The notes beneath the pieces were generated by a model. The model was not told where the DNA came from, made no database searches, and saw nothing but the letters and a program-made list of their open reading frames with translations. Both the position numbers and the translations under genes were made by a program. A stretch of 64,000 nt of DNA from positions 9,611 to 73,610 of the forward strand of contig JABDIN010000022.1 in assembly GCA_013003715.1 (NCBI GenBank), in the 5' to 3' direction. This document shows, in pieces, positions 340-53,878 of the stretch. The first letter of the stretch is position 1. Every line of letters begins with the position of its first letter. This stretch comes from Desulfobacteraceae bacterium (GTDB lineage Bacteria > Desulfobacterota > Desulfobacteria > Desulfobacterales > Desulfosarcinaceae).

Positions 340-1194
340 GTGAAAAAAATAGGATTGGTTGTCAAGCCCGGTACTGAGGCCATTGAAAAAGCGGATGAGT
401 TTGAAAAATGGCTTCACGATAAGGGGCATCAGGTGGTCAGGCATACCGGCAATGTACCGGAAGATGAGTTGAACCGGGAAAAAAACACCGCAGCACCCAA
501 AGCTCTGTTCTGTGTGTTCGTGCTCGGTGGAGACGGCACTTTTCTAAGTGCTGTCCGGTGGATCGGGGATCAGGATACGCCCATTCTCGGTATCAAATTC
601 GGAGACGTGGGATTTTTAGCCGAAGCGACCGAAGACAGTCTGTTTTCCACCGCTGAAAACATCCTGAATTCGGAATTTTCCACCAAACCCAGGATGCGCC
701 TGTTGATCACCGTATTCAGGAATGGAAAAGAGATCGCCCGGGAAACGGTGTTGAATGACGTGGTCATCAGTAAAGGCGTTCTGGCCCGGTTGGCCAATAT
801 TAAAACCTATATTAACGACAACTATCTGACCGCCTATCGCGCCGACGGTCTGATCATTGCGACGCCCACCGGTTCCACGGCATACTCCCTGGCCGCCGGC
901 GGCCCTATTGTTCATCCGTCGGTGCCTGGCATTCTTTTATCGCCCATCTGTCCTTTCACCCTGACCAACCGGCCGCTGATTGTGCCGGATTCGGTCAGCA
1001 TCAAAATCCGGTTCGATGAGAAATCCTCCGATCTGCGCCTCACCTGTGACGGGCAGGTGGGCGTTGCCGTCGATGACCGGGATACCATTGTGGTGAGAAA
1101 GGGATCCCATCCCATTAATCTGATCACGTTGCCGGACCAGGATTATTTCGATGTGTTGAAGGCCAAACTGAGATGGAGCGGCAGCAGGGTGTAG
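340..1194 (+). CDS. nadK: NAD+ kinase
   Basis: GTG start. Carries the GGDGTFL motif, NDVVISKG and [24 protein letters not shown], all typical of NAD kinases. 284 aa. Confidence 0.9.
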
Positions 1195-1209
1195 CCTGTC
1201 GGTCCAGGC

Positions 1210-2250
1210 TTACTGCCGTAATCCCGAATCCGTTGACTCGCCCACGGGTTCAGGGGGCAGATTCTGGCGGATAAGGAAGCTGTTCTGGAGGCTCTTGACC
1301 ACTTTATCCACATTCTCGACGCCTTCGCGTATTTCCTTGATGCCGTTTTTGGTCGTCCGTGTGATGGTGGGAACATCTTCGCTGCCGATCCTGATATTGT
1401 TGAGAATTTGATCCAGGGTCCTCACGGATATGGACACCTCCTCCAATATCCGGGTGATGGTCTCAACGCCTACCTGAATCCCTTCGCCCGCGTTTTCTGC
1501 GGATTTCAAGGTGTTATTGACCCGGTCCATGGCAATGGGCGTTTTTTCAGCGGCGGCGCGGATGGAGTCGATCACCGGTTCGATTTTGTCAACATTGGCC
1601 ATGATGGCATCGATCAATTCCCGTGACCGCAGCAATTCGCCGATGGTGCCCTTGCCCTGCTCGATCTCGGCGGTGATGGATTCTATATGGGATGTGGTCC
1701 GCTCGACGTGGTCAAGGGTCCGCCAGAGCGGTCCGTTGGGATCCGTCAGGGTTTGTGATACTTCAGAAATTTCCTGGACAGCCTTGACCACCATCTTGGC
1801 TGTCTTTTCGACTTCAAACTCGTTTAAGATGTCGGTTATCGATTTCTTCGCCTTTGACGTGATTTCTCCGCCTTCGGCGATGAGTTCCGCCTCACCGGTC
1901 CCCGGGATGATGGATACATACTCAGACCCGATAAATGTCGGGCTTTCAACAATGGCCGTGGCGTCCTCTCTGATACGCAGACGGTAGTTCTCCAGAATGG
2001 CCAGCTCGACCCGGACTTTGTTCTCAACCAAAGTGATGCGCTTTACCTTTCCGATGTCGGTTTTAAACAGTTTTACAGCGGCATTTTCCTCCAGGTTATA
2101 GCTCTCATCGAAGATGGTGTAGAAATCGATCTGGGTGGCGAACCAGTTTTTGCCGCGGCCCACGATAACAACTGCTGCCAGAAGCAATACGATGATACCA
2201 ATGATGAAGGTGCCGACAATTTTTTCTTTTTTACTGAAATCAAGTTCCAT
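1210..2250 (-). CDS. MCE/MlaD-family protein (N-terminal TM helix, MCE domain, long helical C-terminal region)
   Basis: N-terminal TM (IVGTFIIGIIVLLLAAVVIV) is followed by an MCE-like segment (FYTIFDESYNLEENAAVKLFKTDIGKVKRITL...VESPTFIGSEYVSIIPG). It is the last gene of a permease / ATPase-like / MCE gene string. Confidence 0.8.
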   Translation of the reverse strand: MELDFSKKEKIVGTFIIGIIVLLLAAVVIVGRGKNWFATQIDFYTIFDESYNLEENAAVKLFKTDIGKVKRITLVENKVRVELAILENYRLRIREDATAIVESPTFIGSEYVSIIPGTGEAELIAEGGEITSKAKKSITDILNEFEVEKTAKMVVKAVQEISEVSQTLTDPNGPLWRTLDHVERTTSHIESITAEIEQGKGTIGELLRSRELIDAIMANVDKIEPVIDSIRAAAEKTPIAMDRVNNTLKSAENAGEGIQVGVETITRILEEVSISVRTLDQILNNIRIGSEDVPTITRTTKNGIKEIREGVENVDKVVKSLQNSFLIRQNLPPEPVGESTDSGLRQ

Positions 2251-2344
2251 ACATATTCCGTTTCATGGGAAGGTGCCGCCGTTTTCGTATCGAAGTGTCG
2301 AAAATGGCGGCATCTGTCATCGCTTCAATCTTTAGGTCCATCTT

Positions 2345-3019
2345 CTAGTTTACGCTGACAATTGTCAGGGTTTCTTCTTCAATGACCGCGATTTTATTGG
2401 CATACCGGTCAATAAAATTTTTATCGTACGATAGGAAAACCACCGGCGTCCCCTGATCGATTACAGCTTGAAATAGGTGTTTCAGCCGGTCCGCTTTCAT
2501 TCGTCCGATAAAATCTTCCGGTCGGTTGAGAAGAATCACTTCCGGCGATTTCGATATTTCTCTCAGGCACACTGCGATCTGAACATCCAACGGATTCAGC
2601 TGTCCCGGCCTCAGGTGGAGTTTGTCATATAGATCCAGCTTTCGGCATAATGATGCCAGACGATCATCGATGGTGATGCTCAAATTATCTTCATGATAGT
2701 ATCGTAAAAGCAACAGGTTCTGCAAGACGGACCGGTTGCTTATCAGAACGGCATCCGGTGCAATATAGCCGATTTTTTTCTTATAGGGCAGGAGATTCCG
2801 GTAATCAGAGAAATCTAACGGTTCGTCCTTGTACCGGTATTCTCCCTGAATCGGTGTCACCAATGTTGCCAGTGCTCTTAAAAAAATGCGGCCATCTTCC
2901 GGATAGCGTGTTTCGACGGCATACACATCATGTTCGGACAATGAAAAGTCGATATTCGTAATGCCGCGTCCGGTTCCCGTGGCCGGTATTGAAAAATTTT
3001 TCAAATCGATGATATTCAA
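2345..3019 (-). CDS. ABC ATPase-fold protein with degenerate catalytic motifs (in the MlaF position)
   Basis: TTG start 11 nt after the permease stop. The length and the N-terminal beta-strand pattern (IIDLKNFSI...) match an ABC nucleotide-binding domain. However, Walker A is replaced by VETRYPEDGRIF, the signature by LNPLD, Walker B by VILLNRPED, and the H-loop by LSYDKNF. Confidence 0.65.
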   Translation of the reverse strand: MNIIDLKNFSIPATGTGRGITNIDFSLSEHDVYAVETRYPEDGRIFLRALATLVTPIQGEYRYKDEPLDFSDYRNLLPYKKKIGYIAPDAVLISNRSVLQNLLLLRYYHEDNLSITIDDRLASLCRKLDLYDKLHLRPGQLNPLDVQIAVCLREISKSPEVILLNRPEDFIGRMKADRLKHLFQAVIDQGTPVVFLSYDKNFIDRYANKIAVIEEETLTIVSVN

Positions 3020-3030
3020 TGGGCGGCCGC

Positions 3031-3894
3031 CTATAGATAAAAGACAATGGAAATAAAAATGTTAATGATCAGACAATACAAAAAGCATTCCATGGCGGAA
3101 CGCGATGTGGCCAGTGGGATGTCGGTGACTTGTTTTTGGGTATCAAACCCGCGGTAAAGGCAGGTCACGGTGATGGTGATGCCAAACAAAACCGCCTTGA
3201 TCAACCCGACGGCAATGTCCGCAGGGGTTATGGCCTGGCCGATCTGGTGGAGCAGAAGATCAACCTTGATATCGGTTATCCCGCCCAGGATCATGGCGCC
3301 ACCGATGATCGACAATAAATCAAATACGATGAACAGGCTGACAATCGCAGATGTGATACCCACCAGGCGGGGTAGGCATACCACCCGGATGGGGTCGATA
3401 CCCGCCATTTCCAGGGCATCCATTTCGTGAAATACATTCATATAACTGATTTCGATGGTCACCGCGCTGGCTGACCTCAGGATTACCAGAAGCGAGGTAA
3501 TGATGGGGCCAAGTTCCCTGACAATCAGCAGAACAACGGTTTTACCAAGATCATATTGCCCCGAAATTTTGGAAAACTGGAAAATAATCATACAACCAAT
3601 GATCAGGGCAATGGGGGTGATGATGGGGAGCGCTTCCACGGCCGTGAAATAAACCTGCTCGATGATTACCCGCGAGATAAGCGCCCGGCCGGTCTTTGGC
3701 CGGTTCCGGGGTGTGGCGAACATGCGGTAAGTGAAGGCGAACAACTCCAGTATGTGATTTGCCGATCTTATGGTTCGCCTTCCGATATAACCGGTCAATT
3801 GTATCATACCATCACTACACCCCGGATGGCCGTGAGGCCACGGCAACATTGGCTGGAGCCACTGAATTTTTTTTGCGATTGTCTTGGGACTCAA
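3031..3894 (-). CDS. mlaE: MlaE-family ABC transporter permease
   Basis: Multi-TM protein with MlaE-like core (IIEQVYFTAVEALPIITPIALIIGCMIIFQ ... RSASAVTIEISYMNVFHEMDALEMAGIDP). The ORF opens with TTG at 3894. An internal ATG at 3807 (MIQLTGYIGRR...) would give a more typical 258 aa, so the start is uncertain. Confidence 0.8.
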   Translation of the reverse strand: MSPKTIAKKIQWLQPMLPWPHGHPGCSDGMIQLTGYIGRRTIRSANHILELFAFTYRMFATPRNRPKTGRALISRVIIEQVYFTAVEALPIITPIALIIGCMIIFQFSKISGQYDLGKTVVLLIVRELGPIITSLLVILRSASAVTIEISYMNVFHEMDALEMAGIDPIRVVCLPRLVGITSAIVSLFIVFDLLSIIGGAMILGGITDIKVDLLLHQIGQAITPADIAVGLIKAVLFGITITVTCLYRGFDTQKQVTDIPLATSRSAMECFLYCLIINIFISIVFYL

Positions 3895-3905
3895 TTTCCA
3901 TAGTG

Positions 3906-3934
3906 TTGACTTCCGCGAAATCTTACAATATATA
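3906..3934 (+). promoter_or_regulatory. Sigma-70-type promoter candidate for the 3985 gene
   Basis: TTGACT (3906-3911), 17-nt spacer, TATATA (3929-3934), about 50 nt upstream of the ATG at 3985. A divergent candidate lies on the minus strand (TTGACC at 3949-3944, 18 nt, TAAGAT at 3925-3920) facing the mlaE-like gene. Confidence 0.5.
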
Positions 3935-3984
3935 TTGCTTTTAGGTCAATAACTTAAGGAAAGTTCCAAAAATAGAATATTTAC

Positions 3985-4848
3985 ATGAATCACCGAATTT
4001 TTTTGCTGATCATATTTTTCGTGGTGTTTTTTCCCGGCATTGGTGCCGGTACCAACAACGGTGATTTCGTCCAGTATTTTGGTACCGGATTCATCAACTG
4101 GGGTTCGGGGGTCATCCAGGCCAAGGGAGTGAGTGGCGCATGTATACCACCATGTGAAGGCAGCGCCGCAAACACGGAAGATGAAGCCCGACGGAAAGCC
4201 GCTGATAATATTTTCAAGACACTCGAGTGTGTAAAAATAGACAATCGTCTTGTCGCCGGGGACCTTCTTTTGGAAGACGGTGATTTTGCGAATCGTGTGC
4301 AGGACATGATCACGGTTGCCGATGCCGTCGGCCGACAGACCATTGATGGCGGCAGGACGGAGATCACCTTGCAAATGTCGATCCATGGCGGTTTCGCACA
4401 ATTCGTGCTCCCCGAAGATATCAAACCATTGAAAACCGTCAGGCCCATCACCGCTCCGGTGGAAACCGAAAAAAACAACGGTGATGCGCAACACGAGAAC
4501 CAGGCGGATGTTTATACTGGCCTGGTGATTGATGCCCGGGGACTGGGTGTTATCCCGGCAATGTCCCCCACGGTCTTTGACGAAGACGGAGAAGAAGTAT
4601 TCGGACCGGCCTTCATAAGCCGGGAATATGCTGTTCAACACGGTGTCTGTTGCTATTTGACGGATGTGGATAGTGCTCTTGCCAATGAGCGGGTCGACGC
4701 CAAACCGCTTTTAGTGAAAGCCGTTCGGCTTCATGGAGCGGGTACCACTGATCTGGTCATCAGCAACGCGGATGCCGCCAGGCTTCGGAGCGCGTCGGAT
4801 CATCTTGGTTTTTTGCGGCAATGCAGGGTGATCATTGTGGCGGAATAA
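3985..4848 (+). CDS. Exported protein of unknown function
   Basis: N-terminal signal peptide (MNHRIFLLIIFFVVFFPGIGAG). 287 aa with no recognisable catalytic motif. Tightly followed by a lipoprotein gene. Confidence 0.6.
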   Translation: MNHRIFLLIIFFVVFFPGIGAGTNNGDFVQYFGTGFINWGSGVIQAKGVSGACIPPCEGSAANTEDEARRKAADNIFKTLECVKIDNRLVAGDLLLEDGDFANRVQDMITVADAVGRQTIDGGRTEITLQMSIHGGFAQFVLPEDIKPLKTVRPITAPVETEKNNGDAQHENQADVYTGLVIDARGLGVIPAMSPTVFDEDGEEVFGPAFISREYAVQHGVCCYLTDVDSALANERVDAKPLLVKAVRLHGAGTTDLVISNADAARLRSASDHLGFLRQCRVIIVAE

Positions 4849-4884
4849 CCGGGCTATCCATCGTCTACCCAAGGAGGAGTTCTT

Positions 4885-5259
4885 ATGTCGATTCCGAAAA
4901 AAAGTGTGATTCTCTCGATCTGTGCCATCTTTTTCTTCATCGGTTGCGGACCCGAGACTATTTTTCTGCGGCCGGGACTCGATACGCCTTCCCATCATGT
5001 GTCCAACGGCAATAAATTGTTGGATATGGGCAAGATTGAAGATGCTTTCCAGGAATTTTCCCGCGCCAAGGAACTCGATCCCGAGTACACACTCGCATAT
5101 GTCGGCATGGCAATGGTATACGGTCATCGCGGGGAGTATCAATTGGGCCGGCAGTACCTGGCGATTGCCGAAAGCCTGGCGGGGTCGGATGAAGAAGCTG
5201 CGGCGGTTCACACAGGTCTTGAAAAAATGAATGACATGGAGAAGAAAACCACCAATTAG
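4885..5259 (+). CDS. TPR-like lipoprotein
   Basis: Strong RBS AAGGAGGAG. Lipobox (FFFIGCG). TPR-like helical repeat (GNKLLDMGKIEDAFQEFSRAKELDPEYTLAYVGMAMVY). Confidence 0.7.
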   Translation: MSIPKKSVILSICAIFFFIGCGPETIFLRPGLDTPSHHVSNGNKLLDMGKIEDAFQEFSRAKELDPEYTLAYVGMAMVYGHRGEYQLGRQYLAIAESLAGSDEEAAAVHTGLEKMNDMEKKTTN

Positions 5260-5309
5260 AAGAAGCCGGTTGGATGAATCCGGCCGGACAAACTCAAATT
5301 ATGAAAACG

Positions 5310-5348
5310 AAAAGGCTTCAATCGGGGTGCTCCGATTGAAGCCTTTTT
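5310..5348. terminator. Bidirectional intrinsic terminator between the TPR lipoprotein gene and ahcY
   Basis: Perfect 15-bp stem, aaaggcttcaatcgg (5311-5325) pairing with ccgattgaagccttt (5332-5346), and a 6-nt loop. It is flanked by an A-run upstream and TTTTT downstream, between convergent genes. Confidence 0.8.
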
Positions 5349-5381
5349 ACATTTAACTTCAACGCAGACCGATATGACCGG

Positions 5382-6836
5382 CTAGTAGCGGTAGTGATCG
5401 GGTTTATACGGGCCCTCCACCGGTATTCCCAGATATTCGGCCTGAATATCGCTCAGGGTCGTCAGCTTTGCGCCCAATCGATCGAGGTGAAGTCTCGCCA
5501 CTTCTTCATCGAGTTTTTTAGGCAAGGTATAGACCTTGTTGTCATAGGTCCCCTTAGCCAGTTCGATTTGAGCCAGGCATTGGTTCGTGAAGCTATTGCT
5601 CATTACAAAACTGGGGTGGCCGGTGGCGCATCCCAGATTGACCAACCTGCCTTCGGCCAATACCACGATGGATCGCCCGGATTGCAGGGTCCACTTATCC
5701 ACCTGTGGTTTGATATTTGTCCGGATACAACCCGGTGTCTTCTCGAGGTAGGTCATTTCGATTTCGTTATCAAAATGACCGATATTGCATATGATCGCTT
5801 CATTTTTCATTTTTTCCATATGCGCGCCTGTAATGACGTTGTAACAGCCGGTGGCGCTGACGAAGATATCGCCGACAGCGGCCGCATCGTTCAGATCGAC
5901 CACTTCAAAGCCCTCCATGGCCGCCTGCAAGGCGCAAATCGGATCTATTTCAGTAATCAGCACCCGGGCGCCGAATCCACGCATGGAATGAGCGCACCCT
6001 TTGCCCACATCACCATAACCGCACACCACAATTATCTTTCCGGCAATCATGATATCCGTTGCCCGCTTTAATCCGTCCGCCAGGGATTCCCGGCAGCCAT
6101 ACAGGTTGTCGAATTTAGATTTTGTTACAGAGTCATTGACATTGAAGGCCGGAAAAAGGAGCTCATTTTTAGCGGCGAGTTGGTATAATCTGTGCACACC
6201 GGTGGTGGTCTCTTCGGACACCCCTTTGATGTTTGCCGAGATCCCGGTCCAGAAACCCGGATCTCTGTCGTAGGATGCGCTTAATCTATCCATCAGACAT
6301 CGCATGTCCACGTTGTCGTAGTTCTGATTCAGAATGCCTGGATCTTTTTCTATTGCGACCCCTTGGTGAACAAGCATGGTGGCATCACCGCCGTCATCGA
6401 CAATCAGATCGGGTCCACTGCCGTCGGGCCACACCAGCGCCTGTTCCGTACACCACCAGTATTCTTCGAGGGTTTCTCCCTTCCAGGCGAATACCGCCGC
6501 CGACCCGGCTGCGGCGATGGCCGCCGCCGCCTGATCCTGGGTGGAGAAGATGTTGCACGAGGCCCAACGGACATCCGCTCCCAATGCGGTCAAGGTTTCG
6601 ATCAGCATGGCGGTCTGGATGGTCATGTGAAGGCTTCCCATGATTTTGAGGCCTTTGAGCGGTTGTGTCTTGCCATATTTATCGCGAACCGCCATCAAGC
6701 CCGGCATTTCATTTTCAGACAATTCCATCTCTTTTCTGCCCAGTTCAGCCTGGGATATGTCCGCAATTTTATAGGACAGGGCCGTATCCAACAAGAGGTG
6801 GTCGTTTTTGTCGTTCATTTTCAAGGGTACACTCAT
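5382..6836 (-). CDS. ahcY: S-adenosyl-L-homocysteine hydrolase (adenosylhomocysteinase)
   Basis: Full-length AhcY-like sequence ([27 protein letters not shown]..., NAD-binding [11 protein letters not shown]-terminal PDHYRY). I place the start at ATG 6836 (MSVPL...), which is preceded by GGAGGA at 4-nt spacing. The ORF-track extension to 6902 translates a structured leader. Confidence 0.92.
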
Positions 6837-6850
6837 ACTATCCTCCATAC

Positions 6851-6900
6851 GCCGTCCGTTTGCAGGGCTGGGGCGAAAACCCCGGCTTTCGATGACGGCC
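6851..6900 (-). promoter_or_regulatory. Structured 5' leader of ahcY (possible SAH-responsive riboswitch-like element)
   Basis: Minus-strand RNA: GGCCGUCAUCGAAAGCCGGGGUUUUCGCCCCAGCCCUGCAAACGGACGGC. The outer stem pairs GCCGUC with GACGGC, and there is an inner hairpin GGGG-UUUUCG-CCCC. The element ends 4 nt before the Shine-Dalgarno GGAGGA. The family assignment is unverified. Confidence 0.3.
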
Positions 6901-7080
6901 ATTTTTTAATTGTTATGTTGTTTCTGATTCAGGGTAATTATATTGCCGGTCCGGGTAATCTTAATCCGATAACCAAATCGGTAAGGTAACAGTTGTCGTT
7001 TTTAATTGGGCATCATCACCGTTTTTTTTACAAAATGTAAACTTAAAAAATTCGAACTGATTCCAAATGGGGTTGCCCTG

Positions 7081-8250
7081 TCAAATACCGGCTTTTTCTT
7101 TCAACTTTTCGGCCATTGCCGTGTTTTCCCAGGAAAACTCCGGTTCCGTCCGGCCGAAATGCCCGTAGGCCGACGTGTTTTTGTAGATCGGCCTTAACAG
7201 ATCGAGATATTCAATGATGGCTGCCGGTCGAAGGTCGTATACGTCCAGCACAAGGTCTTCCACTTGTTTTTTGGGTATTTTACCCGTTCCCATCAGATCC
7301 ACCATAACCGATACGGGTTCGGCGACACCAATGGCATATGCGATTTGCACTTCGCATTTTTTAGATATGCCGGCCGCCACGATGTTTTTGGCGATATGCC
7401 GGCCCATATACGATGCACTCCGGTCCACCTTGGAGGGATCTTTGCCGGAGAAACAACCGCCCCCATGGCTGCCCTGGCCGCCGTAGGTGTCCACAATAAT
7501 TTTACGTCCGGTCAGTCCGCAATCACCCATGGGCCCGCCGATGACGAATCTTCCGGTCGGGTTGATGAAAAACCGTGTATCACCGTCGGTCATATTCGCC
7601 GGGATGACCTTTTTAATGACCTCTTCAATGATGGCCTCCCGCAAATCTTCATACACCACGTCCGGTTTGTGCTGGGTGGACACGACAATGGTGTCGACCC
7701 GTTTGGGGGTACCGTTTTCATATTCAATGGTCACCTGGGATTTGCCGTCGGGCCTCAGGAAATCAAGGGCACCGTTTTTCCTGACTTTTGCCAGTCGCCG
7801 GGTCAGCTTATGTGCATACATGATGGGCATGGGCATCAGTTCGGGTGTTTCGTCGGTGGCATAACCGAACATCAGACCCTGATCGCCCGCGCCCTGGTCC
7901 TTGTATAAACCCTCGCCCGCATTCACCCCCTGGGCGATGTCCTGGGACTGGCGGTCTATGCTGGTGATCACCGAACATGTCTGCCAATCGAAGCCCATTT
8001 GTGACGAGTGATAACCGATACCCCTGATGGTTTCCCGCACGATGTCCGGGATATCCGCATAGCAATCAGTGGTGATCTCACCGGCGATGAAGGCAAGACC
8101 GGTGGTGACCATGGTTTCACAAGCAACACGGCAATTCGCGTCCTTTTCGATGATGGCGTCGAGAATGGCATCGGAGATCGCATCGGCCACCTTATCCGGG
8201 TGACCCTCCGTAACGGATTCCGAGGTAAATAAAAAATTGTCCCTGCTCAT
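7081..8250 (-). CDS. metK: S-adenosylmethionine synthetase
   Basis: Canonical MetK motifs: [41 protein letters not shown]. 389 aa, directly upstream of ahcY on the same strand. Confidence 0.95.
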
Positions 8251-8380
8251 GTTATCGCTCCTTTTAATTGTTAATGGGCGTCTGTATCGGTGGGATTATC
8301 ACATCCACACATCAATGGTTTGTTCGCAAAACCGTAAATCGACCGCCCATGGTTGTTCTTGATGAATAATACCTGTTCAA

Positions 8381-9211
8381 TCAGCCAATCCCCGGCGGGC
8401 AGAGCATCATATTGTCAATCAGCCGGGGTGTACCGACCTTGACGGCCAGCGCCATCAAGGCCATGCCTTCTATTTTATCAATGGTTTCGAGCGTTTCCGG
8501 ATCACAGATGTCGATGTAGTCAATCTGCGTATCGGGATGGGAATCGATGAGGAACTTGGCGTTGTTTATAAGCGCTTTTGTATCCAATTCCCCATCCCCA
8601 ACCTGTTTTCGGGCGTTCTCCAGTGCATTGATCAAACCAAGCGCCTGGACGCGTTGCGCCGGTGTCAGATAAGAGTTGCGGGAACTCATGGCCAATCCGT
8701 CCGGTTCCCTGATGGTGGGGGCATCGATGATGGTTACCGGCATATTGAGATCCCGCACCATTTTTCGGATAATCATCAGTTGCTGGTAATCTTTCCGCCC
8801 GAATATGGCGAATGTGGGCGCCATAATATTAAAGAGTTTGGTAACCACCGTCGCCACGCCGCGAAAGTGTGTGGGGCGGTGAATGCCGCAGAGGTGATGA
8901 GGAAGATCCTCAAGCACCACAAAAGATTCGTAACCATGCGGATAAAAAGCATCTGCATCCGGTGTGAACAATATGTCCGCACCGGTCTTTTCCGCCAATT
9001 CGCGGTCCCGTTCAAGATCCTTCGGGTATTTATCCAGGTCTTCACCCGGCCCGAACTGCGCGGGGTTGACAAATATGCTCACCACGAGATGATCCGCCAA
9101 TTCTCTTCCTTTTTCCATCAGCGAGAGGTGACCGGCGTGAAAATAACCCATGGTAGGTACCAGGGCGATGGTCTTCGCTGACTGTCTGACCGTACGTAGG
9201 TGTTCGATCAT
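8381..9211 (-). CDS. panC: Pantoate--beta-alanine ligase
   Basis: PTMGYFHAGHLSLM (HxGH nucleotidyltransferase motif), FVNPAQFGPGEDLDKYP, MSSRNSYL. 276 aa. Confidence 0.9.
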   Translation of the reverse strand: MIEHLRTVRQSAKTIALVPTMGYFHAGHLSLMEKGRELADHLVVSIFVNPAQFGPGEDLDKYPKDLERDRELAEKTGADILFTPDADAFYPHGYESFVVLEDLPHHLCGIHRPTHFRGVATVVTKLFNIMAPTFAIFGRKDYQQLMIIRKMVRDLNMPVTIIDAPTIREPDGLAMSSRNSYLTPAQRVQALGLINALENARKQVGDGELDTKALINNAKFLIDSHPDTQIDYIDICDPETLETIDKIEGMALMALAVKVGTPRLIDNMMLCPPGIG

Positions 9212-46624: not shown

Positions 46625-47995
46625 TCAGATGTCCCGTCCGATATCGATTCCGTATTTCTTGATCCGTTTCCAGACAGTTATCCGACTGACCTGAAGCCTG
46701 CGGGCGGCCTCGGATTGGTTGCCGCCGGTTTCGCGTAGCACGCTGAGCAGTTCGGCCCGTCCCTTTTCCGCCATTGCCTTTGTGCCGGTTGTCCTGTTCT
46801 CCGGAGGTGCTGCCTGTCCATTTATGATTTTTGGCGGGAGGTGGCCGACATCGATGTTGCCGCCGTCGCACAGGACAAAGGCATACTCTATGACGTTTCG
46901 TAATTCCCTGACGTTCCCCTGCCAGGCATAGCCGGTCAATACCCGCATGGCCCGGGGGGTTAGCCCGGTTATCTTTTTGCCCGTATCCGCATTGTTGCGA
47001 CGGATAAAACTTTGCACAATCAGAGGGATGTCTTCTTTTTTATCTCGAAGGGGGGGACAGGACAGCGGGAAGACATTTATCCGGAAAAACAGGTCCTCCC
47101 TGAATTCTCCCTGTTCGATGAGATTTTCCAGATTTTTATGGGTGGCGGAGATGATTCGAACATCAACGGCAATGGGGCGGTTGTCGCCCATGCGTTCTAT
47201 CTCTTTTTCTTCAAGGACCCTGAGAAGTTTCACTTGTGTGGCCAATGGTATATCCCCGATTTCATCTAAAAAAATACTGCCCCCGTGAGCCGCTTCAAAA
47301 CGGCCGATACGTGTTTTTTCGGCACCGGTATAGGCGCCTTTGGTATGGCCGAACAATTCGCTTTCCAACAGGTTTTCATTCAAGGCGGCGCAATTGACCT
47401 TTACAAAGGGCCGGTCCCGCCGGGGACCGGCCTCATGGATCGCCCTGGCCACCACTTCCTTTCCGGTTCCGCTCTCCCCATACACGATCACCGGTGCTTC
47501 CGTCTTGGCCACATTGTCTATGAGTTCGTAAAGATTTTGCATGACATGGGATTTGCCGGTCAGGCCATGATAGCCTTCCTCCATATGAAGGGTTTTCTTA
47601 AGGGTGGATATCTCATTCTGCTGCATCACGATCTGGGACATATCCGTGAGGGTTTCAACCGCGCCGATCAGTTTACCGTCTTTATCGCGCAGAACCGACG
47701 CATTTTTAATAATGTTCACGGTCCGGTGCTCCTTATGGGTGATCAGACATTTTTTCGCCCTGACGCCACCGCTTGAATACAGGCCGCACCACTTTTCCCC
47801 CGATCCCTTTGCATATATTTCACACCCCGTGCAATCCAGCACCCGGCATGACCGGCCCACCAGTTCCCCGGCCGTGTAACCGGTGAGGTGTTCGGCGGCC
47901 GGGTTAACGGCCAGCACCTTGCCCCGGGGATCAACGACGATCACGCCGTCCTGTAGTGTGTCCACAATGGTTTTCCAGTGGGGGGAGAGATCCAT
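46625..47995 (-). CDS. Sigma-54-dependent transcriptional activator (Cys-rich PAS, AAA+, Fis-type HTH)
   Basis: PAS N-terminus. AAA+ motifs [23 protein letters not shown] (GAFTGA-type loop) and FLDEIGD. C-terminal HTH ([25 protein letters not shown]). Confidence 0.9.
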
Positions 47996-48015
47996 GTTTT
48001 TCTCCTGTTGGTTTG

Positions 48016-48043
48016 GTTAACTGCATGGTTAACACCTGTTAAC
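48016..48043. promoter_or_regulatory. Array of three GTTAAC hexamers next to the activator gene start (candidate activator binding / autoregulatory site)
   Basis: GTTAAC occurs at 48016, 48028 and 48038 (spacing 12 and 10 nt), 21-48 nt upstream of the activator ATG (47995, minus strand). Confidence 0.35.
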
Positions 48044-48271
48044 ATAGACGCTCATCGGTACAAATGCAAGTCCCCCGTTTTGGAAGATGGCCTTGTTTAA
48101 TTGTAATAACAACAATATGCGGTTTACTGACCGATTCATCGCGCCGGGGACGGGATGACACTCCTGTTTTGGCTCCCCCGACGAATAGATGCGCCATAAC
48201 TTATTATAATATAGGAGTATTAATTCTGTTTTCCAGCCGGTCTGTTCCGTCGCGCATGTTGGATGAGAAGT

Positions 48272-48285
48272 GTTAACCTGTTAAG
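48272..48285. promoter_or_regulatory. GTTAAC-ct-GTTAAG pair (candidate upstream activating sequence)
   Basis: tGTTAACctGTTAAG lies about 115-125 nt upstream of the -24/-12 promoter at 48399. It is related to GTTAACacctGTTAAC at 48028-48043. Confidence 0.4.
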
Positions 48286-48398
48286 TTAGCACCTCGTCTT
48301 CATTTGCCTGGGGGCCTTTGGCCGGAACCGGGTATTTTTTGGAAATAATCGTAAAATAACAATTGGTTATGAAATGTTTGCCTGTTCGAACCGTTGGC

Positions 48399-48414
48399 TG
48401 GCACATGGGTTGCT
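48399..48414 (+). promoter_or_regulatory. Sigma-54 (-24/-12) promoter of the rhodanese-cytochrome operon
   Basis: TGGCACatgggTTGCT. GG (48400-48401) and GC (48412-48413) are 12 nt apart, matching the consensus TGGCAC-N5-TTGCW. It lies 87 nt upstream of ATG 48501 and divergent from a sigma-54 activator gene. Confidence 0.8.
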
Positions 48415-48500
48415 AATCTGGCATGGAGACCATGATACCGGTCCGTATGATGCTGTCCGGTTCAAAAATATTATACCTATGAAAAGGAGCGTAAAAACCC

Positions 48501-48845
48501 ATGACGAAAAAATGGCTGATCATTGTAGCGATGACCCTGGCATCTGTGTATCTGGCAACAGCTGTGTTCGCAGAAGAAGCCGGAAATAAACGAAAAGGCA
48601 AATACCTCTACCGAAAGGTGTACAAGGCTTGCAACGAAAGGGGTGAGGTGGAATCCCCGAAGCCCAGCCTGAATCCGGATGCAAAAACCCAGGGTGAGTG
48701 GAAAGATATATTCGAGAATGAACTTTTTACGGAATTCGGTTGTACCGAGGAGTGGGAAGCGCTTTCGGATCAAGCGCTGCTGGATATTTTCACTTACCTT
48801 CACGATCATGCCGCTGATTCTCCCACACCGTTAAAGTGCAAATAA
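48501..48845 (+). CDS. Small periplasmic protein of unknown function (first gene of the sigma-54 operon)
   Basis: Signal peptide MTKKWLIIVAMTLASVYLATAVFA. 114 aa with three Cys and no CXXCH. RBS AAAGGAG. Confidence 0.6.
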   Translation: MTKKWLIIVAMTLASVYLATAVFAEEAGNKRKGKYLYRKVYKACNERGEVESPKPSLNPDAKTQGEWKDIFENELFTEFGCTEEWEALSDQALLDIFTYLHDHAADSPTPLKCK

Positions 48846-48922
48846 CGCATGGACGGGTGATGCAGGATAGGTGGACGACACAGATTCATAACCCTTTCTT
48901 TCAAATTTCAGGAGTTGTACCT

Positions 48923-50068
48923 ATGAGAGCAAAAACAATCATTTCCCTTTTGACGGCAATTACATTGGCAGTGGTTGCCGGTTGCGCCGGTACACAGCAG
49001 GCAGCCGCCCCCCAGGCCGAAGCCGGCGGTACGCCGGATTGGTTTTTCCATGACATCGTCGGCGCCGCATTTGTGGCCCAGTATGTTCAGATACCCATGC
49101 CCGAAGATGTGATGATCATCGATGCGCGTCCCAAGCGCACCAAATATGACAAAGGGCATATCCCCATGGCGGTCAGCATACCGGACAGCCAGTTCGAAAA
49201 GCTCACCGATCTGTTGCCCGAAAAAAAGGACGTGCTCCTGATCTATTATTGCGAAGGACCGGCCTGTAAACTCAGCCACAAATCCGCTCGAAAAGCCGAG
49301 TCTCTGGGATACACGAATGTGAAGGTGTATGCCGACGGATTTCCCGGATGGATGAAAATTGCCGGTCATTATGCCGCGGTTTCCGAGAACTGGGTAAAAA
49401 ATCAGTTGGACAAGCAGGCGGACATTACCCTGGTGGATTCCCGTCCCAAACGGACCAAATACGATAAAGGGCATATTCCCACCGCCATCAGCATACCGGA
49501 TAGTCAATTCGATAAACTCACGGCACAACTCCCCCGGGACAAGGAAAAAGCACTGGTGTTTTATTGTGGCGGACTTAAGTGCAAATTGAGTCATAAAAGC
49601 GCTGAAAAGGCCATTGCCGCAGGGTACACCAATGTCAAGGTCTTCGCCGCCGGATATCCTGCCTACACCGCCCTCATGGCCGATACCGGGGAAACGGCCG
49701 GGGTCGTGGCAGCGACTTCCATGAAATCCGGTGCTGATGAGGGAACCATAGACAACCAGGAGTTCGTGAATCTGGTAAAGAACCAACCCGACAGCCTATA
49801 CCTGGTGGATGTGCGGGATCCGGATGAATACGCCAAAGGAAGTTTCAAAACGGCCGTGAACATTCCCGTTGATCAACTTGAATCGAAAATCAAGACCTTG
49901 CCCACGGACAAGCCCGTCGTCTTTGTCTGCGGCACTGGTGCCCGCAGTGGAGAGTCATACTACATGGTTCAGGATTTGCGGCCGGAACTTAAAAACGTAT
50001 TTTACGTCGAGGCGGAATTGGCCTTTAAGAAGGATGGTTCATTCGATCTGACCGAACTGAAGAATTAA
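48923..50068 (+). CDS. Periplasmic lipoprotein with three rhodanese domains (sulfurtransferase-like)
   Basis: I choose the ATG at 48923 (RBS AGGAG). Lipobox LAVVAGCAG. Domains 1 and 2 are near-duplicates (D[AS]RPKRTKYDKGHIP.A.SIPDSQF.KLT ... YC.G..CKLSHKSA.KA...GYTNVKV). Domain 3 has a classical loop, VFVCGTGARSGE. Confidence 0.85.
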   Translation: MRAKTIISLLTAITLAVVAGCAGTQQAAAPQAEAGGTPDWFFHDIVGAAFVAQYVQIPMPEDVMIIDARPKRTKYDKGHIPMAVSIPDSQFEKLTDLLPEKKDVLLIYYCEGPACKLSHKSARKAESLGYTNVKVYADGFPGWMKIAGHYAAVSENWVKNQLDKQADITLVDSRPKRTKYDKGHIPTAISIPDSQFDKLTAQLPRDKEKALVFYCGGLKCKLSHKSAEKAIAAGYTNVKVFAAGYPAYTALMADTGETAGVVAATSMKSGADEGTIDNQEFVNLVKNQPDSLYLVDVRDPDEYAKGSFKTAVNIPVDQLESKIKTLPTDKPVVFVCGTGARSGESYYMVQDLRPELKNVFYVEAELAFKKDGSFDLTELKN

Positions 50069-50109
50069 CGCGGTATTACACTTTTTTATGATCACACCAG
50101 GACCGGGTG

Positions 50110-50140
50110 TTGACAATCCGGCTCCTGGTGCTGTTACAAT
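50110..50140 (+). promoter_or_regulatory. Possible internal sigma-70-type promoter ahead of the cytochrome genes
   Basis: TTGACA (50110-50115) and TACAAT (50135-50140), but with a long 19-nt spacer. Lies in the 166-nt gap between the rhodanese and cytochrome genes. Confidence 0.35.
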
Positions 50141-50234
50141 ACGGTGCGAGTGTTTTTCCCATCACGGAGCAGCCGGTATTAATAGAGAGATGGCGGCAAT
50201 CATGGCGCATCCCCTTCGTATCAAGGAGCAATCG

Positions 50235-51854
50235 ATGAAAATAGAGAGATGGCGGCCATTTTGGCATACCCCAGTTTGGTTTTTATCCCTAATTCTCGTG
50301 ATCGGCATCCTCCCCGTCCATGCTGATGAAAATGAGGCCCCTGCCGCCCCTGGCCGCACCATGGCCCGTCAGGCGATAAAAGGCGCCGAGGCATGGAGCA
50401 CCGTCGACCACGCCAAGCTTCAAGCGTTGAATAAAAACTTCGCCACGGGTGCCGAGATTACGGATGCCTGTTTATCCTGTCACAGCGAAGCAGATGCCCA
50501 GTTCAGGGAAAGCATCCACTGGACTTGGCTGGCCAACGGCGACCGGGAAAAAGGGAAAGCCGGGTATTCGTTGAATAATTTTTGCCTTTCCACCAATAAA
50601 CTGGCCGACGAAAGTTGCCTGGCCTGTCATCCGGGTTGGGGTACCCGGCGTGAAGCGATCAATTGCCTGGCTTGTCACAGCCGGAAAACCATGAATTTCG
50701 AAGAAGCCTTTGAAGACTACCAGGCTTTTTCCGTGGAAACCGATGATGAATCCATTGAAATAGCCAAGGAGATCCAGGTCAGCATCCAGGCCGCTGCCCA
50801 GGACATCGGCCGTCCCGTTCGCGATAATTGCGGTTCCTGCCATTTTTACGGCGGCGGGGGCGATGGCGTGAAGCACGGCGATTTAGATTCTTCCCTGGCC
50901 AAACCGAGTAAATCCCTGGATGTCCACATGGGCGTCGACGGACAAAATTTTGATTGTGTCCGCTGTCATACCACGGTTTCACACCATATTGCCGGACGGG
51001 TGTATACGACGCCGGCCGCCAGCCACCGCAAGAGCCTTGTCGAAGATGACCTGGCCGCGAAGATCACCTGTGAGTCCTGCCACACGGCAACGCCCCACCG
51101 TGATGGGTCGAAGGTGAACGACCACACGGACAAGGTGGCCTGCCAAACCTGTCACATCCCCGAGTTTGCAAGAGAGAAACCCACCAAGTTGTCATGGGAC
51201 TGGTCCCAGGCGGGGAAACTCAAGGACGGGAAACCATACAAAACCAAGGACGAATTCGGCCAATACGATTACATGAGCATCAAGGGCAGCATGGAGTGGG
51301 CGAAACAGGTGCGGCCCGAATATCACTGGTTCAACGGTTCCATCCGGAGCCTCACCCTGAAGGATGAGATCACGCCTGGAGAGACAGTGCCTGTGAGCCG
51401 GCCCGTGGGCGGCCGCGAGGATATAAATTCCCGTATATATCCATTTAAAATTCATCGCGGTGTGCAGCCTTATGACACCAAGACCAACCGACTGCTTGCC
51501 CCTTTGCTTTCCGGTGCCGACGGATATTGGACGACATTGGATTGGCAGCGGGCCCTGTCAACAGGGATGAAGGCGGTGGACCTGGAATACTCGGGAGATT
51601 TTGAGTTTGTGGAAAGCACCTATGTGTTTCCCATCACCCATATGGTGGCTCCCGGAGAAAAAGCCTTGAGCTGTAATGACTGTCATGTGAACACGGGCAG
51701 CCGTCTGTCCACCCTCACAGGATTTTATATGCCCGGACGTGACGCCGCAAATCCCGTCAACTCGATGGGCTGGTTGCTGGTACTGGGTTCCGTGGTCGGC
51801 ATATTGGTCCACGGTGTCGGCCGGTTTTTTACCAATGGCAACAAGGAGAAGTAA
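50235..51854 (+). CDS. Octaheme c-type cytochrome, tetrathionate-reductase (Otr) family-like, with a C-terminal hydrophobic anchor
   Basis: I choose the ATG at 50235 (RBS AAGGAG). Signal/anchor VWFLSLILVIGILPVHA. Eight CXXCH motifs: CLSCH, CLACH, CLACH, CGSCH, CVRCH, CESCH, CQTCH, CNDCH. Also CHFYGGGGDGVKHGD. C-terminal helix WLLVLGSVVGILVHGVG. Confidence 0.88.
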   Translation: MKIERWRPFWHTPVWFLSLILVIGILPVHADENEAPAAPGRTMARQAIKGAEAWSTVDHAKLQALNKNFATGAEITDACLSCHSEADAQFRESIHWTWLANGDREKGKAGYSLNNFCLSTNKLADESCLACHPGWGTRREAINCLACHSRKTMNFEEAFEDYQAFSVETDDESIEIAKEIQVSIQAAAQDIGRPVRDNCGSCHFYGGGGDGVKHGDLDSSLAKPSKSLDVHMGVDGQNFDCVRCHTTVSHHIAGRVYTTPAASHRKSLVEDDLAAKITCESCHTATPHRDGSKVNDHTDKVACQTCHIPEFAREKPTKLSWDWSQAGKLKDGKPYKTKDEFGQYDYMSIKGSMEWAKQVRPEYHWFNGSIRSLTLKDEITPGETVPVSRPVGGREDINSRIYPFKIHRGVQPYDTKTNRLLAPLLSGADGYWTTLDWQRALSTGMKAVDLEYSGDFEFVESTYVFPITHMVAPGEKALSCNDCHVNTGSRLSTLTGFYMPGRDAANPVNSMGWLLVLGSVVGILVHGVGRFFTNGNKEK

Positions 51855-51857
51855 ATC

Positions 51858-52502
51858 ATGGCGAATCAAATGGCCCACATATATTTGTATACCCGGTTTG
51901 AACGGTTCGGGCATTGGCTGCAGATGCTGTTGATCCTCATCCTGCTCGTTACCGGCCTCGAGGTACATGGCTCATTTGCCCTGATGGGATATGAACGGGC
52001 GGTATCCGTTCACAATTTTTGCGGTGTGGCCTGGCTGGTATTGTTCGCTTTCCTCACATTCTGGGTGTTTACCACGGGTGAATGGCGCCAATATGCCCCC
52101 ACCACCAAAAAGATGCTGGATGTGATCAAGTACTATGGTTACGGTATCTTCAAAGGTGAACCGCATCCGGTGCCGAAACGCAAGCACGCGAAACACAATC
52201 CGTTGCAACGCCTGACCTATCTCATTCTGGCGGCGGCATTGCTGCCGGTTCAGATGATCACCGGCCTTTTATACTGGGGATACAATTCATGGGAAACCCT
52301 GGGACTGTCGTCGTTGTCGTTGACGGCCGTCGCTTTGGTGCATCTTGCCGGTGCGTTTGCCGTTTTTTCATTTATCATTGTCCATGTATACATGACAACC
52401 ACCGGGCATACGATTTTCGCCCACACCCGCGCCATGGTCACCGGTTATGAATATGTGGAAGAGGGCCTTGAAATCGAGGCTTGGGAAAAAAAGGGTACGT
52501 GA
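51858..52502 (+). CDS. Membrane b-type cytochrome (Ni/Fe-hydrogenase / FdnI / PhsC-like cytochrome b family)
   Basis: Starts 3 nt after the octaheme gene stop. RFERFGHWLQMLLILILLVTG... Four TM helices with conserved His positions (HW, VHNF, VHLAGAF, IIVHVYM). 214 aa. Confidence 0.85.
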   Translation: MANQMAHIYLYTRFERFGHWLQMLLILILLVTGLEVHGSFALMGYERAVSVHNFCGVAWLVLFAFLTFWVFTTGEWRQYAPTTKKMLDVIKYYGYGIFKGEPHPVPKRKHAKHNPLQRLTYLILAAALLPVQMITGLLYWGYNSWETLGLSSLSLTAVALVHLAGAFAVFSFIIVHVYMTTTGHTIFAHTRAMVTGYEYVEEGLEIEAWEKKGT

Positions 52503-52590
52503 TGCCTTTCGTTTCCCGTTGAGTGGCGGTTTTTAATTGTTGTCGAATTCTGAGATAACCCGATACCAGTAATCATTGCTGGTCCGATTG

Positions 52591-52642
52591 ATACCGGGTG
52601 CCGATAATAATGCTTTCGGCACCCGGTATTTATTTTTGTTTT
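52591..52642 (+). terminator. Intrinsic terminator of the rhodanese-cytochrome operon
   Basis: 14-bp perfect stem, ataccgggtgccga pairing with tcggcacccggtat, with an 11-nt loop, followed by ttatttttgtttt. Confidence 0.85.
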
Positions 52643-52941: not shown

Positions 52942-52957
52942 TGGCCCATTCTTTGCT
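52942..52957 (+). promoter_or_regulatory. Sigma-54 (-24/-12) promoter candidate for the DUF4405-like gene
   Basis: TGGCCCattctTTGCT. GG (52943-52944) and GC (52955-52956) are 12 nt apart. It lies 94 nt upstream of ATG 53051. Confidence 0.55.
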
Positions 52958-53050
52958 ATCTGTAATACGTATCAAACACTTTTTAAGAGACAGATCCTTA
53001 ATATCAGGTAAATACAACTCTTCAGAATGATTATCGGAGGAAATCAAAAC

Positions 53051-53878
53051 ATGAAAATACGTAAAATCACCTCATTGACCGCATTGGTGTCTTTTCTGCT
53101 GCTCATCACCACCAGTTTTATTTTATATGTTGTACCGGCCGGAAGAGTCGCTTATTGGGCGAACTGGAAATTATTGGCGCTGACCAAGGAACACTGGACG
53201 GATGTGCATATAAACCTAGGTTTTTTATTCCTCATCTCCATCGGATTGCATATCTATTACAATTGGAAGCCGATCGTCTCGTATCTCAAAAACAAGACCC
53301 GTCAGGTCAAAGTGTTCACACCGGACTTCAATGCGGCCGTGATTATCAGCATTGCGGTCGTCATCGGTACATTGGTGGGCGTTCCCCCATTCAGCACCGT
53401 GATCGGAATCGGTGCCTCCATCAAGCAGACAGCGGCTGACAAATATGGTGAACCACCCTATGGACATGCGGAAATGTCCAATTTAAAATCGTTTGCCACG
53501 AGAATGGGGATGGATTTAGGGGAGAGCATGAATAAGCTCAAGGCCGGCGGCATAAAATTCGATAATGACATGCAGACACTGTCCCAGATCGCCGAACAGA
53601 ACGATATATCGCCCCAGCAGGTCTATCTGGTCATGGCACCGTCGGAAGAAGCGGCGACCGTATCCAATGGTTTACCCGCTGAGCCGAAAGCCGGTTTGGG
53701 AAACCGATTATTATCCGATATCTGCGAGGAGTATGCGCTGGACGTCACCCTGGTCGTATCCACACTCGAAAAAAATAACATTAAAGCATCTTCGGATATG
53801 ACCATGAAGACAATAGCGGCTGACAATGGTATGAGTCCGCATGACGTTTACGATGCCATAAAAGTCGCCATGCGTTGA
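53051..53878 (+). CDS. DUF4405-like membrane protein with two C-terminal soluble repeats
   Basis: I choose the ATG at 53051 (RBS GGAGGA). Three TM helices with His residues (HWTDVHINLGFLFLISIGLHIYYNW). Two ~55-aa internal repeats end in ...ISPQQVYLVM and ...MSPHDVYDAI. Confidence 0.7.
   Translation: MKIRKITSLTALVSFLLLITTSFILYVVPAGRVAYWANWKLLALTKEHWTDVHINLGFLFLISIGLHIYYNWKPIVSYLKNKTRQVKVFTPDFNAAVIISIAVVIGTLVGVPPFSTVIGIGASIKQTAADKYGEPPYGHAEMSNLKSFATRMGMDLGESMNKLKAGGIKFDNDMQTLSQIAEQNDISPQQVYLVMAPSEEAATVSNGLPAEPKAGLGNRLLSDICEEYALDVTLVVSTLEKNNIKASSDMTMKTIAADNGMSPHDVYDAIKVAMR

Follow-up and report, generated by a model that had tools for sequence, protein, structure and literature searches.

Octahaem cytochromes c of the Otr family have reportedly had a crystal structure since 2004 and no agreed physiological role. 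In vitro, Otr is able to reduce tetrathionate (Mowat 2004, cited by PMC8528874 and PMC12949373), and transcription of otr in Candidatus Sulfomarinibacter increased 36-fold with tetrathionate in sediment microcosms (PMC8528874). However, a 2026 genetic study found Otr to be irrelevant to tetrathionate respiration in Shewanella (PMC12949373). Here we analyse a 64-kb stretch of a Desulfobacteraceae contig (64,000 nucleotides of JABDIN010000022.1, below called the window), which contains genes for an Otr-family cytochrome, a cytochrome b (cytB), a rhodanese-like lipoprotein and a small secreted protein, p114. The enzyme family is known, but the conserved membrane-bound module in which it occurs here is undescribed. 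We consider with moderate confidence that the module is a menaquinol-linked periplasmic reductase for sulfur intermediates with S-S bonds, in which the rhodanese would take part in substrate capture or cleavage.

Several described systems resemble parts of this module. Rhodanese genes adjoin a thiosulfate-induced octahaem cytochrome in Dethiobacter (PMC10376724). A psr operon reported to be strongly up-regulated in sulfur disproportionation encodes a triple-rhodanese lipoprotein (PMC12142623). The ext cluster of Geobacter combines a rhodanese lipoprotein and a porin with MccSep, a pentahaem selenoprotein polysulfide reductase with a Cys-ligated haem (PMC13510729). An earlier note, made from the sequence of the window, knew of no characterised system with the present gene combination. 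Our literature search, which left most subscription-journal papers outside, likewise found no published description of it, only separate or analogous cases.

The window represents a different and widespread architecture of Otr, found in sulfate reducers that dominate marine sediments. This gene context makes the role of Otr testable in the cultured carriers of the operon, Desulfosarcina variabilis, D. widdelii and Desulfospira joergensenii, and points to cryptic cycling of sulfur intermediates. By-products of the analysis are a likely unlisted selenoprotein form and a cytochrome c family in which a C-terminal cysteine may serve as ligand.

Otr cytochrome and its membrane partner

Protein families were assigned with Pfam and NCBIfam/TIGRFAM models, the bit scores being compared with the curated cut-offs. 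The cytochrome, which contains CHFYGGGGDGVKHGD, scores 513.7 bits with TIGR04315 (cut-off 375; model positions 1-440) and 217 bits with Pfam Cytochrome_cB, and matches the Shewanella enzyme (PDB 1SP3) at E 1.2e-101. Its gene has AAGGAG 7 nucleotides (nt) upstream of the ATG at 50235. In a comparison of 21 Desulfobacterales-type with 20 Shewanella-type sequences, 110 positions were invariant across both clades (41 sequences), including all eight CXXCH motifs and Lys108. The latter aligns with Lys56 of 1SP3, which is reportedly the unusual lysine ligand of the active-site haem (Mowat 2004). The assignment to the Otr family made in the earlier note thus stands, and the matches to the three families that it had named, Otr, Rhodanese and Ni_hydr_CYTB, were all recovered. 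Identity with MccA/SirA, NrfA or HAO was considered and rejected: only the Otr model passes its cut-off, and the protein has no CXXCK motif. NrfH, NrfB and other multihaem models give 16-23 bits, far under their cut-offs. A protein identical to the window Otr is on record from a Desulfobacteraceae metagenome-assembled genome.

The median length of Otr is 543 amino acids (aa) in the Desulfobacterales type and 462 aa in the Shewanella type. The former is extended by an N-terminal segment, by an insert at 265-272 and, at the C-terminus, by a GFYMPGRD motif with a transmembrane helix after it. This helix is retained in all 15 aligned relatives and is absent only from the Shewanella-type branch, and thus it is a trait of the clade. 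The hydrophobic helix noticed previously is therefore present, but it is typical rather than unusual. His526, in the middle of the helix (Otr residues approximately 512-535; window 51780-51840), is invariant. Possible functions are additional haem ligation and contact with the cytochrome b.

Related loci were collected in a genome scan with one genome per species and an Otr alignment as query. It yielded 80 Desulfobacterales loci with 52-67% identity, including Desulfosarcina variabilis, Desulfospira joergensenii and an Olavius symbiont. The synteny counts below (out of 60, 73 or 74) comprise only loci with enough sequence around otr. The cytochrome b gene lies directly downstream of otr in 67 of 74 loci. 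In the window its ATG (51858) follows the otr stop codon after 3 nt in the same frame, and its AAGGAG box lies inside the 3' end of otr; the two genes are thus predicted to be translationally coupled.

The cytochrome b has four hydrophobic segments, in agreement with the earlier description. Residues His19, His52, His162 and His176 are invariant in 61 homologues and form the dihaem pattern of the FdnI/PhsC type. The best NCBIfam match is PhsC, under its cut-off (105.6 bits vs 204). The other equivalog models, hydrogenase cytochrome b (52.2 vs 121.5) and FdnI (46.2 vs 115.9), are below their cut-offs as well. The four conserved histidines, the coupling to otr, the adjacency in related loci, and the restriction of the Otr helix to this clade support a link to the quinol pool. 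Both the helix and a cytochrome b neighbour are lacking in the soluble Shewanella type, which has a haem-binding small cytochrome c instead.

Table 1. Features of the otr locus in the window
Feature	Coordinates	Strand	Description
Sigma-54 enhancer-binding activator	46625-47995	-	PAS, Sigma54_activat 243.6 bits, AAA_lid_14, HTH_8 (Pfam)
Candidate activator-binding repeats, cluster 1	48014-48049		GGTTAAC / GGTTAACA / TGTTAACA; adjoins the activator start codon
Candidate activator-binding repeats, cluster 2	48268-48290		GTGTTAACCTGTTAAG; about 125 nt 5' of the -24 element
Sigma-54 -24/-12 promoter	48399-48414	+	TGGCACatgggTTGCT; 102 nt 5' of the first plus-strand gene (p114)
p114	48501-48845	+	Secreted, 114 aa; signal peptide, AGGAG ribosome-binding site, no CXXCH
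Triple rhodanese-like lipoprotein	48923-50068	+	381 aa; three Pfam Rhodanese stretches, 155.5 bits
Sigma-70-like hexamers	50110-50140	+	TTGACA-19 nt-TACAAT in the rhodanese-otr spacer (166 nt); significance doubtful
Otr-family octahaem cytochrome c	50235-51854	+	539 aa; signal peptide, eight CXXCH, C-terminal transmembrane helix
Four-helix dihaem cytochrome b	51858-52502	+	214 aa; Ni_hydr_CYTB 93.9 bits vs cut-off 30.1 (Pfam)
Intrinsic terminator	52590-52642	+	15-bp stem (52590-52630), 11-nt loop, U-rich tail

Conservation of the gene cluster

Upstream of otr, p114 is found in 59 and the rhodanese gene in 54 of 73 genome loci. A reciprocal scan of metagenomes with a rhodanese alignment as query gave 80 loci, 67 of them with room to judge; otr follows the rhodanese gene in 66 of the 67, and p114 precedes it in 66 as well. 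Thus the rhodanese is essentially dedicated to otr, although otr can occur without the rhodanese. Desulfosarcina-like loci show the order p114-rhodanese-otr, and Desulfobacula-like loci show rhodanese-p114-otr. This conserved gene order is not due to chance. The sulfur-redox module proposed in the earlier note was at stake in two comparisons and came through both: the cytochrome is not of the MccA, Nrf or HAO families, and the rhodanese and otr genes are syntenic whichever of the two serves as query. Some genomes have a pair of otr copies, or a pair of rhodanese-otr sets, next to each other (L059 at 473-3003 and 5131-8524, L064, L067).

In related operons, further genes are located between the activator gene and p114. 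They encode DUF3373 proteins (401 bits), YedE/YeeE, TusA, DsrE-like proteins, and small conserved proteins. The genes for YedE, TusA and DsrE-like proteins are found inside the operons of L021, L045, L047, L051 and others. The same set is known as the YTD cluster and has been discussed for sulfur disproportionation (PMC13490349). Its presence, together with the selenocysteine (Sec) forms of the rhodanese described below, strengthens the sulfur role proposed earlier. YedE and TusA were seen only in operons lacking the rhodanese, which would be consistent with both sets handling the same sulfur species.

The Shewanella-type loci (L081 at 2748-6395, and L082) contain genes for a small monohaem cytochrome c, DUF3373 and Otr, and no cytochrome b. 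DUF3373 is a predicted outer-membrane protein of 570 aa in these loci, and its gene is the first in many Desulfobacterales otr operons. It is probably a conserved, uncharacterised partner of Otr. The likely history is that the Desulfobacterales branch gained the helix and the cytochrome b, and that the small cytochrome then lost its haem motif.

Rhodanese-like lipoprotein and its selenocysteine relatives

The longest open reading frame (ORF) of the rhodanese gene begins with GTG at 48836. The likely start is the ATG at 48923, which has AGGAG 8 nt upstream and leads to a lipobox, VAGC. The lipobox and the three Pfam stretches agree with the triple-rhodanese lipoprotein described earlier. The canonical loop, C-G-T-G-A-R-S, occurs in domain 3. 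In domains 1 and 2 the pattern is YC-x-G-x-x-C-K-L-S-H, the second cysteine being encoded by TGT at 49265 and by TGC at 49580, respectively. In these two domains the second Cys, or Sec in relatives, stands where the canonical C-x4-R-[ST] loop has arginine.

An in-frame TGA replaces the codon for the second Cys in the loop of domain 1, domain 2 or both in 11 related genome loci, and the frame continues beyond it. It occurs in both domains in L008 (5854-6190), L010, L012, L014, L039, L067 and L074, and in domain 1 only in L006, L027, L033 and L059. Each TGA is followed, 16-19 nt on, by a GC hairpin resembling a selenocysteine insertion sequence (SECIS), and these hairpins show compensatory changes. 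The window copy of the gene has no TGA at these positions, and no SECIS-like hairpin accompanies its two Cys codons. Thus the window protein is predicted to be the Cys homologue of a C-x4-U selenoprotein.

Since Sec replaces the canonical loop arginine, the C-x4-C/U pair is probably redox-active, which points to thiol or selenol redox chemistry in domains 1 and 2. The role of sulfane-sulfur carrier suggested in the earlier note needs revision here: domain 3 is canonical, but domains 1 and 2 are not classical carriers. The best NCBIfam match of the protein is the rhodanese/DsbD-like selenoprotein TsoB, under the cut-off. The rhodanese selenoprotein forms named in the excerpted text of a 2026 review are UxxS, UxxG, CxU and UxxxxU (TsoB). 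C-x4-U is absent among the forms in that excerpt, and thus it is likely an unlisted form.

One possibility is that the operon reduces selenite, tellurite or other chalcogen oxyanions, like the Geobacter cluster that contains ExtH. Indeed, the cluster for selenite/tellurite reduction encodes both ExtH, a rhodanese-like lipoprotein, and MccSep, which also supports selenite-dependent oxidation of methyl viologen (PMC13510729), and YedE-type genes occur in the related operons. However, the ExtH model NF040901 gives only 15.3 bits with the window rhodanese (cut-off 200; E 0.0074), and Otr is unrelated to MccSep. Moreover, selenium oxyanions are trace compounds, whereas the operon is widespread in sediment sulfate reducers. 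This makes a chalcogen-oxyanion module very improbable.

A simpler sulfur chemistry would be that of a plain respiratory tetrathionate reductase. Otr alone would reduce tetrathionate to thiosulfate with quinol-derived electrons, and the rhodanese and p114, without a part in catalysis, would only process the thiosulfate formed or serve to protect the cell. At +198 mV (value cited in PMC8528874), the tetrathionate/thiosulfate couple has a higher potential than menaquinol, which favours reduction. The in vitro activity and the induction of otr in Candidatus Sulfomarinibacter agree with such a role, as does the YedE/TusA pair of related operons, which is of a thiosulfate-uptake type (see PMC11073785). 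On the other hand, the in vitro activity has been described as very low, and otr deletion had no tetrathionate phenotype in two Shewanella strains (PMC12949373). The linkage of rhodanese and otr in 66 of 67 loci and the selenocysteine in the loops argue for more than the clean-up of a product. We consider tetrathionate reduction by Otr alone to be unlikely.

Small protein p114, a haem-less relative of cytochrome c

The earlier note had listed a 114-aa protein with a signal peptide; the ORF, the signal peptide and the ribosome-binding site are all present. No Pfam or NCBIfam model matches p114. However, it shares 40% identity (E 6e-22) with a monohaem cytochrome c of 109 aa that is encoded beside the Shewanella-type otr. 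The ECKACH motif of the latter is replaced by VYKAC[N/H/M] in the p114 family and by VYKACN in the window; the cysteines C44, C81 and C113 of p114 are invariant. Thus p114 appears to be a haem-motif-less derivative of the small cytochrome c beside Shewanella otr. It is probably homologous to the SO_4142-type cytochrome c, yet it should not be filed as a haem protein. The AlphaFold model of p114 is all-helical (pLDDT 81). A Foldseek search of the Protein Data Bank with this model gave no significant match (best E 2.6), although several top matches were class I cytochromes c, and so the homology is argued from sequence.

A profile search of 1.8 billion representative sequences yielded 156 clusters at E <= 0.001 (P0361-P0510). 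A set of 66 full-length sequences (64 clusters, the window protein and the Shewanella-type proteins) was aligned. CXXCH or CX3CH is retained in 52 of these and lost in the remaining 14. A conserved methionine is lacking in the small cytochrome c family, whose sole invariant candidate for the distal position is a cysteine located two residues before the C-terminus. The haem-less p114 branch retains this near-C-terminal cysteine. The family may use His/Cys haem ligation, as in TsdA, SoxA or MccSep.

Operon structure and sigma-54 control

The intergenic gaps are short, each gene of the operon has a ribosome-binding site at its start, a single strong terminator is present, and sigma-54 sites precede the first gene in the window and in relatives. 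Thus p114, rhodanese, otr and cytB are best explained as one sigma-54-dependent operon that would be co-transcribed and switched on by the divergent PAS-type activator. The features listed in the earlier note are all present where it had placed them, small corrections being needed for the terminator stem and for the rarity of the Otr helix. The promoter TGGCACatgggTTGCT is a perfect TGGCAC-N5-TTGCT, and it is the sole perfect match to TGGCAC-N5-TTGCW in the 64-kb window. The -24/-12 promoter proposed earlier has the correct spacing, and its position upstream of the first gene is conserved in relatives.

A scan of 2.1 Mb of related loci for sites matching at least 10 of the 11 consensus positions found 125 sigma-54 sites, compared with approximately 20 expected by chance, as estimated from base frequencies. 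Approximately 65 of them lie 20-165 nt upstream of whichever gene opens the operon. This gene is p114 in 17 loci, the rhodanese gene in 28, the DUF3373 gene in 13, and otr in three.

Hairpins were judged by their free energy and by z-scores relative to shuffled sequence. The terminator reaches -29.2 kcal/mol (z = -5.65), which none of 200 shuffled sequences matched. The earlier note had correctly seen an intrinsic terminator here, but its stem has 15 bp (52590-52630) rather than 14.

Alternatively, the genes may be neighbours without a shared function, p114 and the rhodanese forming one sigma-54 unit while otr and cytB are transcribed from an internal sigma-70-like site. The site in the rhodanese-otr spacer matches 11 of 12 hexamer positions, has a long spacer, and falls into the top 0.3% of random 200-nt segments. 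The earlier note had raised it as a caveat. The site itself is real, but a comparable one is not conserved ahead of otr across the 80 related loci. The spacer does not contain a convincing terminator either, as its best hairpin (-10.6 kcal/mol, z = -1.19) is no better than those of shuffled sequences. Moreover, the genes remain grouped downstream of one sigma-54 site even though their order varies. Thus separate units are hardly to be expected, and this is the least probable of the explanations considered.

The activator has a GAYTGA loop in its AAA+ domain and a Fis-type helix-turn-helix, and lacks a receiver domain. These domains agree with the divergent sigma-54 activator gene that had been proposed. 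A divergent homologue is found at most 6.5 kb from otr in 48 of 60 related loci. Together with the conserved promoter sites, the activator supports the predicted dedicated sigma-54 control that had been put forward. Five cysteines of the PAS domain, C50, C55, C58, C70 and C83 (C-x4-C-x2-C-x11-C-x12-C), are conserved in at least 95% of 55 homologues, which suggests a metal cluster or thiol-based sensing. The Fe-S cluster of NreB and the sulfane-sulfur-reactive thiols of FisR are analogies only.

TGTTAAC-type repeats are candidate binding sites of the activator. The spacers between activator gene and operon in 52 loci contain on average 3.75 TGTTAA/TTAACA half-sites, compared with 0.29 in random segments, an approximately 13-fold difference; 47 of the 52 spacers have at least two half-sites. 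The distance of cluster 2 from the promoter is typical of an enhancer site, and it may function as such.

In Desulfobacula-type loci (L036, L037, L039, L043, L044, L053-L057, L060, L061, L065, L071, L072), extra sigma-54 sites beside the same activator gene precede two further units. The first, observed in 15 loci, encodes a periplasmic thioredoxin-like protein, a Tat-signal 4Fe-4S protein and a 148-aa membrane protein. The second is cydAB (nine loci). This hints at a larger regulon and at a possible supply of reductant for periplasmic thiols. The thioredoxin-like and Fer4 genes found in relatives have no tblastn match in the window.

The sites before cydAB and the thioredoxin-like operon could also indicate that the operon serves detoxification of nitrite, hydroxylamine or NO, or the response to oxidants, with the activator sensing redox or nitrosative stress via its Cys-rich PAS domain. 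In agreement with this, Otr enzymes act best in vitro on nitrite and hydroxylamine (PMC12949373). However, nitrogen-cycle genes are not among the recurrent neighbours in 160 related loci; these are the genes of the rhodanese, YedE, TusA, DsrE-like proteins and DUF3373. Moreover, a nitrogen-oxide function leaves the rhodanese and its selenocysteine without a role. We regard it as improbable.

A further sigma-54-like site, TGGCCCattctTTGCT, was observed with one mismatch at 52942-52957, 85 nt upstream of a gene encoding a DUF4405 membrane protein (53027-53878). Genes for DUF4405 and an M55 peptidase are also located downstream of cytB in some relatives (L004, L075, L123). Among the relatives scanned for such sites (L004 and L075, with L123 outside the scan), the site upstream of the DUF4405 gene has no counterpart. 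No functional link was seen for the flanking genes, which encode a TPR lipoprotein, an Na/H exchanger, an ABC-F ATPase, an M55 peptidase and others. An Rfam search of the window matched no RNA family.

Proposed mechanism

In the menaquinol-linked reductase that we propose, the dihaem cytochrome b would oxidise menaquinol and hand the electrons to Otr, which would be held at the membrane by its own C-terminal helix. The electrons would travel along the haem chain of Otr to the lysine-ligated active-site haem in the periplasm. The rhodanese-like lipoprotein would capture or cleave the substrate. Its domain 3 would be a classical sulfane-sulfur acceptor, and its domains 1 and 2 would act via the redox-active C-x4-C pair, or C-x4-Sec in relatives. 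Sulfite released from substrates may be reduced as well. p114 would once have been an electron-donor cytochrome c and, after loss of the haem motif, would have been kept as a cysteine-bearing accessory subunit. The earlier note had proposed a quinol-linked sulfur-redox module with delivery of sulfane sulfur between rhodanese and Otr. Its anatomy, families, synteny and sulfur context are borne out, but the delivery step does not yet hold.

Several observations weigh against this mechanism. The physiological substrate of Otr is still disputed (PMC8528874, PMC12949373). Deletion of otr in Shewanella ANA-3 leaves tetrathionate respiration unaffected, and its authors suggest sulfite; the preference of Otr for nitrite and hydroxylamine in vitro comes from the same study (PMC12949373). 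In 7 of 74 loci the Otr helix is kept without an adjacent cytochrome b gene. Of 73 loci, 19 lack the rhodanese and 14 lack p114, and so neither is obligatory for Otr. Indeed, loci with p114, otr and cytochrome b but no rhodanese exist, and thus the rhodanese is dispensable in a part of the clade. The window contains no YedE, TusA, DsrE or DUF3373 genes (tblastn). The sigma-70-like site upstream of otr is strong, though unconserved. Finally, the sigma-54 sites before cydAB in Desulfobacula-type loci fit an oxidant-stress regulon equally well.

A bolder version is an undescribed respiratory reductase whose chemistry is split over several polypeptides, and we consider it doubtful. The Cys/Sec pair of the rhodanese would attack an S-S-bonded substrate and hold the sulfur covalently. 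The bound sulfur would then be reduced at the lysine-ligated haem of the membrane-anchored, quinol-fed Otr, with p114 as a cysteine-bearing shuttle or adaptor. If this holds, the Otr family would gain its missing physiological role and its partner set, a new C-x4-U form of rhodanese selenoprotein would be defined, and Otr would be linked to the YTD genes implicated in sulfur disproportionation.

Comparison with known systems

The Sud/PsrABC systems and the psr lipoprotein of Desulfurivibrio dismutans share with this locus a periplasmic rhodanese encoded together with a quinol-linked sulfur reductase, and the latter lipoprotein also has three domains. However, the psr enzymes are molybdoenzymes with an anchor of the PsrC/NrfD type, whereas here a haem c enzyme is combined with a dihaem cytochrome b. 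The C-x4-C/U loops have not been reported in the psr triple-rhodanese lipoprotein.

The ExtHIJKL/MccSep system of Geobacter sulfurreducens also combines a rhodanese-like lipoprotein with a multihaem cytochrome c, and S-S cleavage by Sec/Cys has been proposed for it. Its porin may be likened to the product of an outer-membrane barrel gene in relatives of the window operon. MccSep differs in being an unrelated pentahaem cytochrome that itself carries the Sec and the haem-ligating Cys, whereas here the Sec/Cys pair is in the rhodanese. The ext cluster as described has no cytochrome b, and the ExtH model does not match the window rhodanese.

TsoB and other rhodanese-like selenoproteins have the same rhodanese fold with Sec in the loop of the selenoprotein forms, and the U-x4-U motif of TsoB, as given in the review excerpt, shares the x4 spacing. 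The motif in the present family, C-x4-U, occurs twice, in separate domains of a single secreted protein, and the window copy has Cys at both positions.

The anchors of PhsABC and FdnGHI are four-helix dihaem cytochromes b with the same pattern of histidines. FdnH has its own C-terminal transmembrane helix, which is the basis of comparison with the helix of Otr. The partner here is, however, a multihaem cytochrome c rather than an Fe-S subunit, and the score with PhsC is well below the cut-off.

The closest relative is Otr of Shewanella oneidensis (SO_4144, 1SP3), which belongs to the same family, with the eight haem motifs, the lysine ligand and the 110 invariant positions in common. The Shewanella locus also has a homologous gene for a small partner of the cytochrome c type nearby, and its DUF3373 gene is shared with many Desulfobacterales operons. 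However, the Shewanella protein is soluble, has approximately 462 aa, and lacks the C-terminal helix and an adjacent cytochrome b, and its small partner keeps CXXCH. The window locus has no DUF3373 gene; it is distinguished by the membrane helix, the coupled cytochrome b, the haem-motif-less partner, the rhodanese lipoprotein, and the predicted sigma-54 control.

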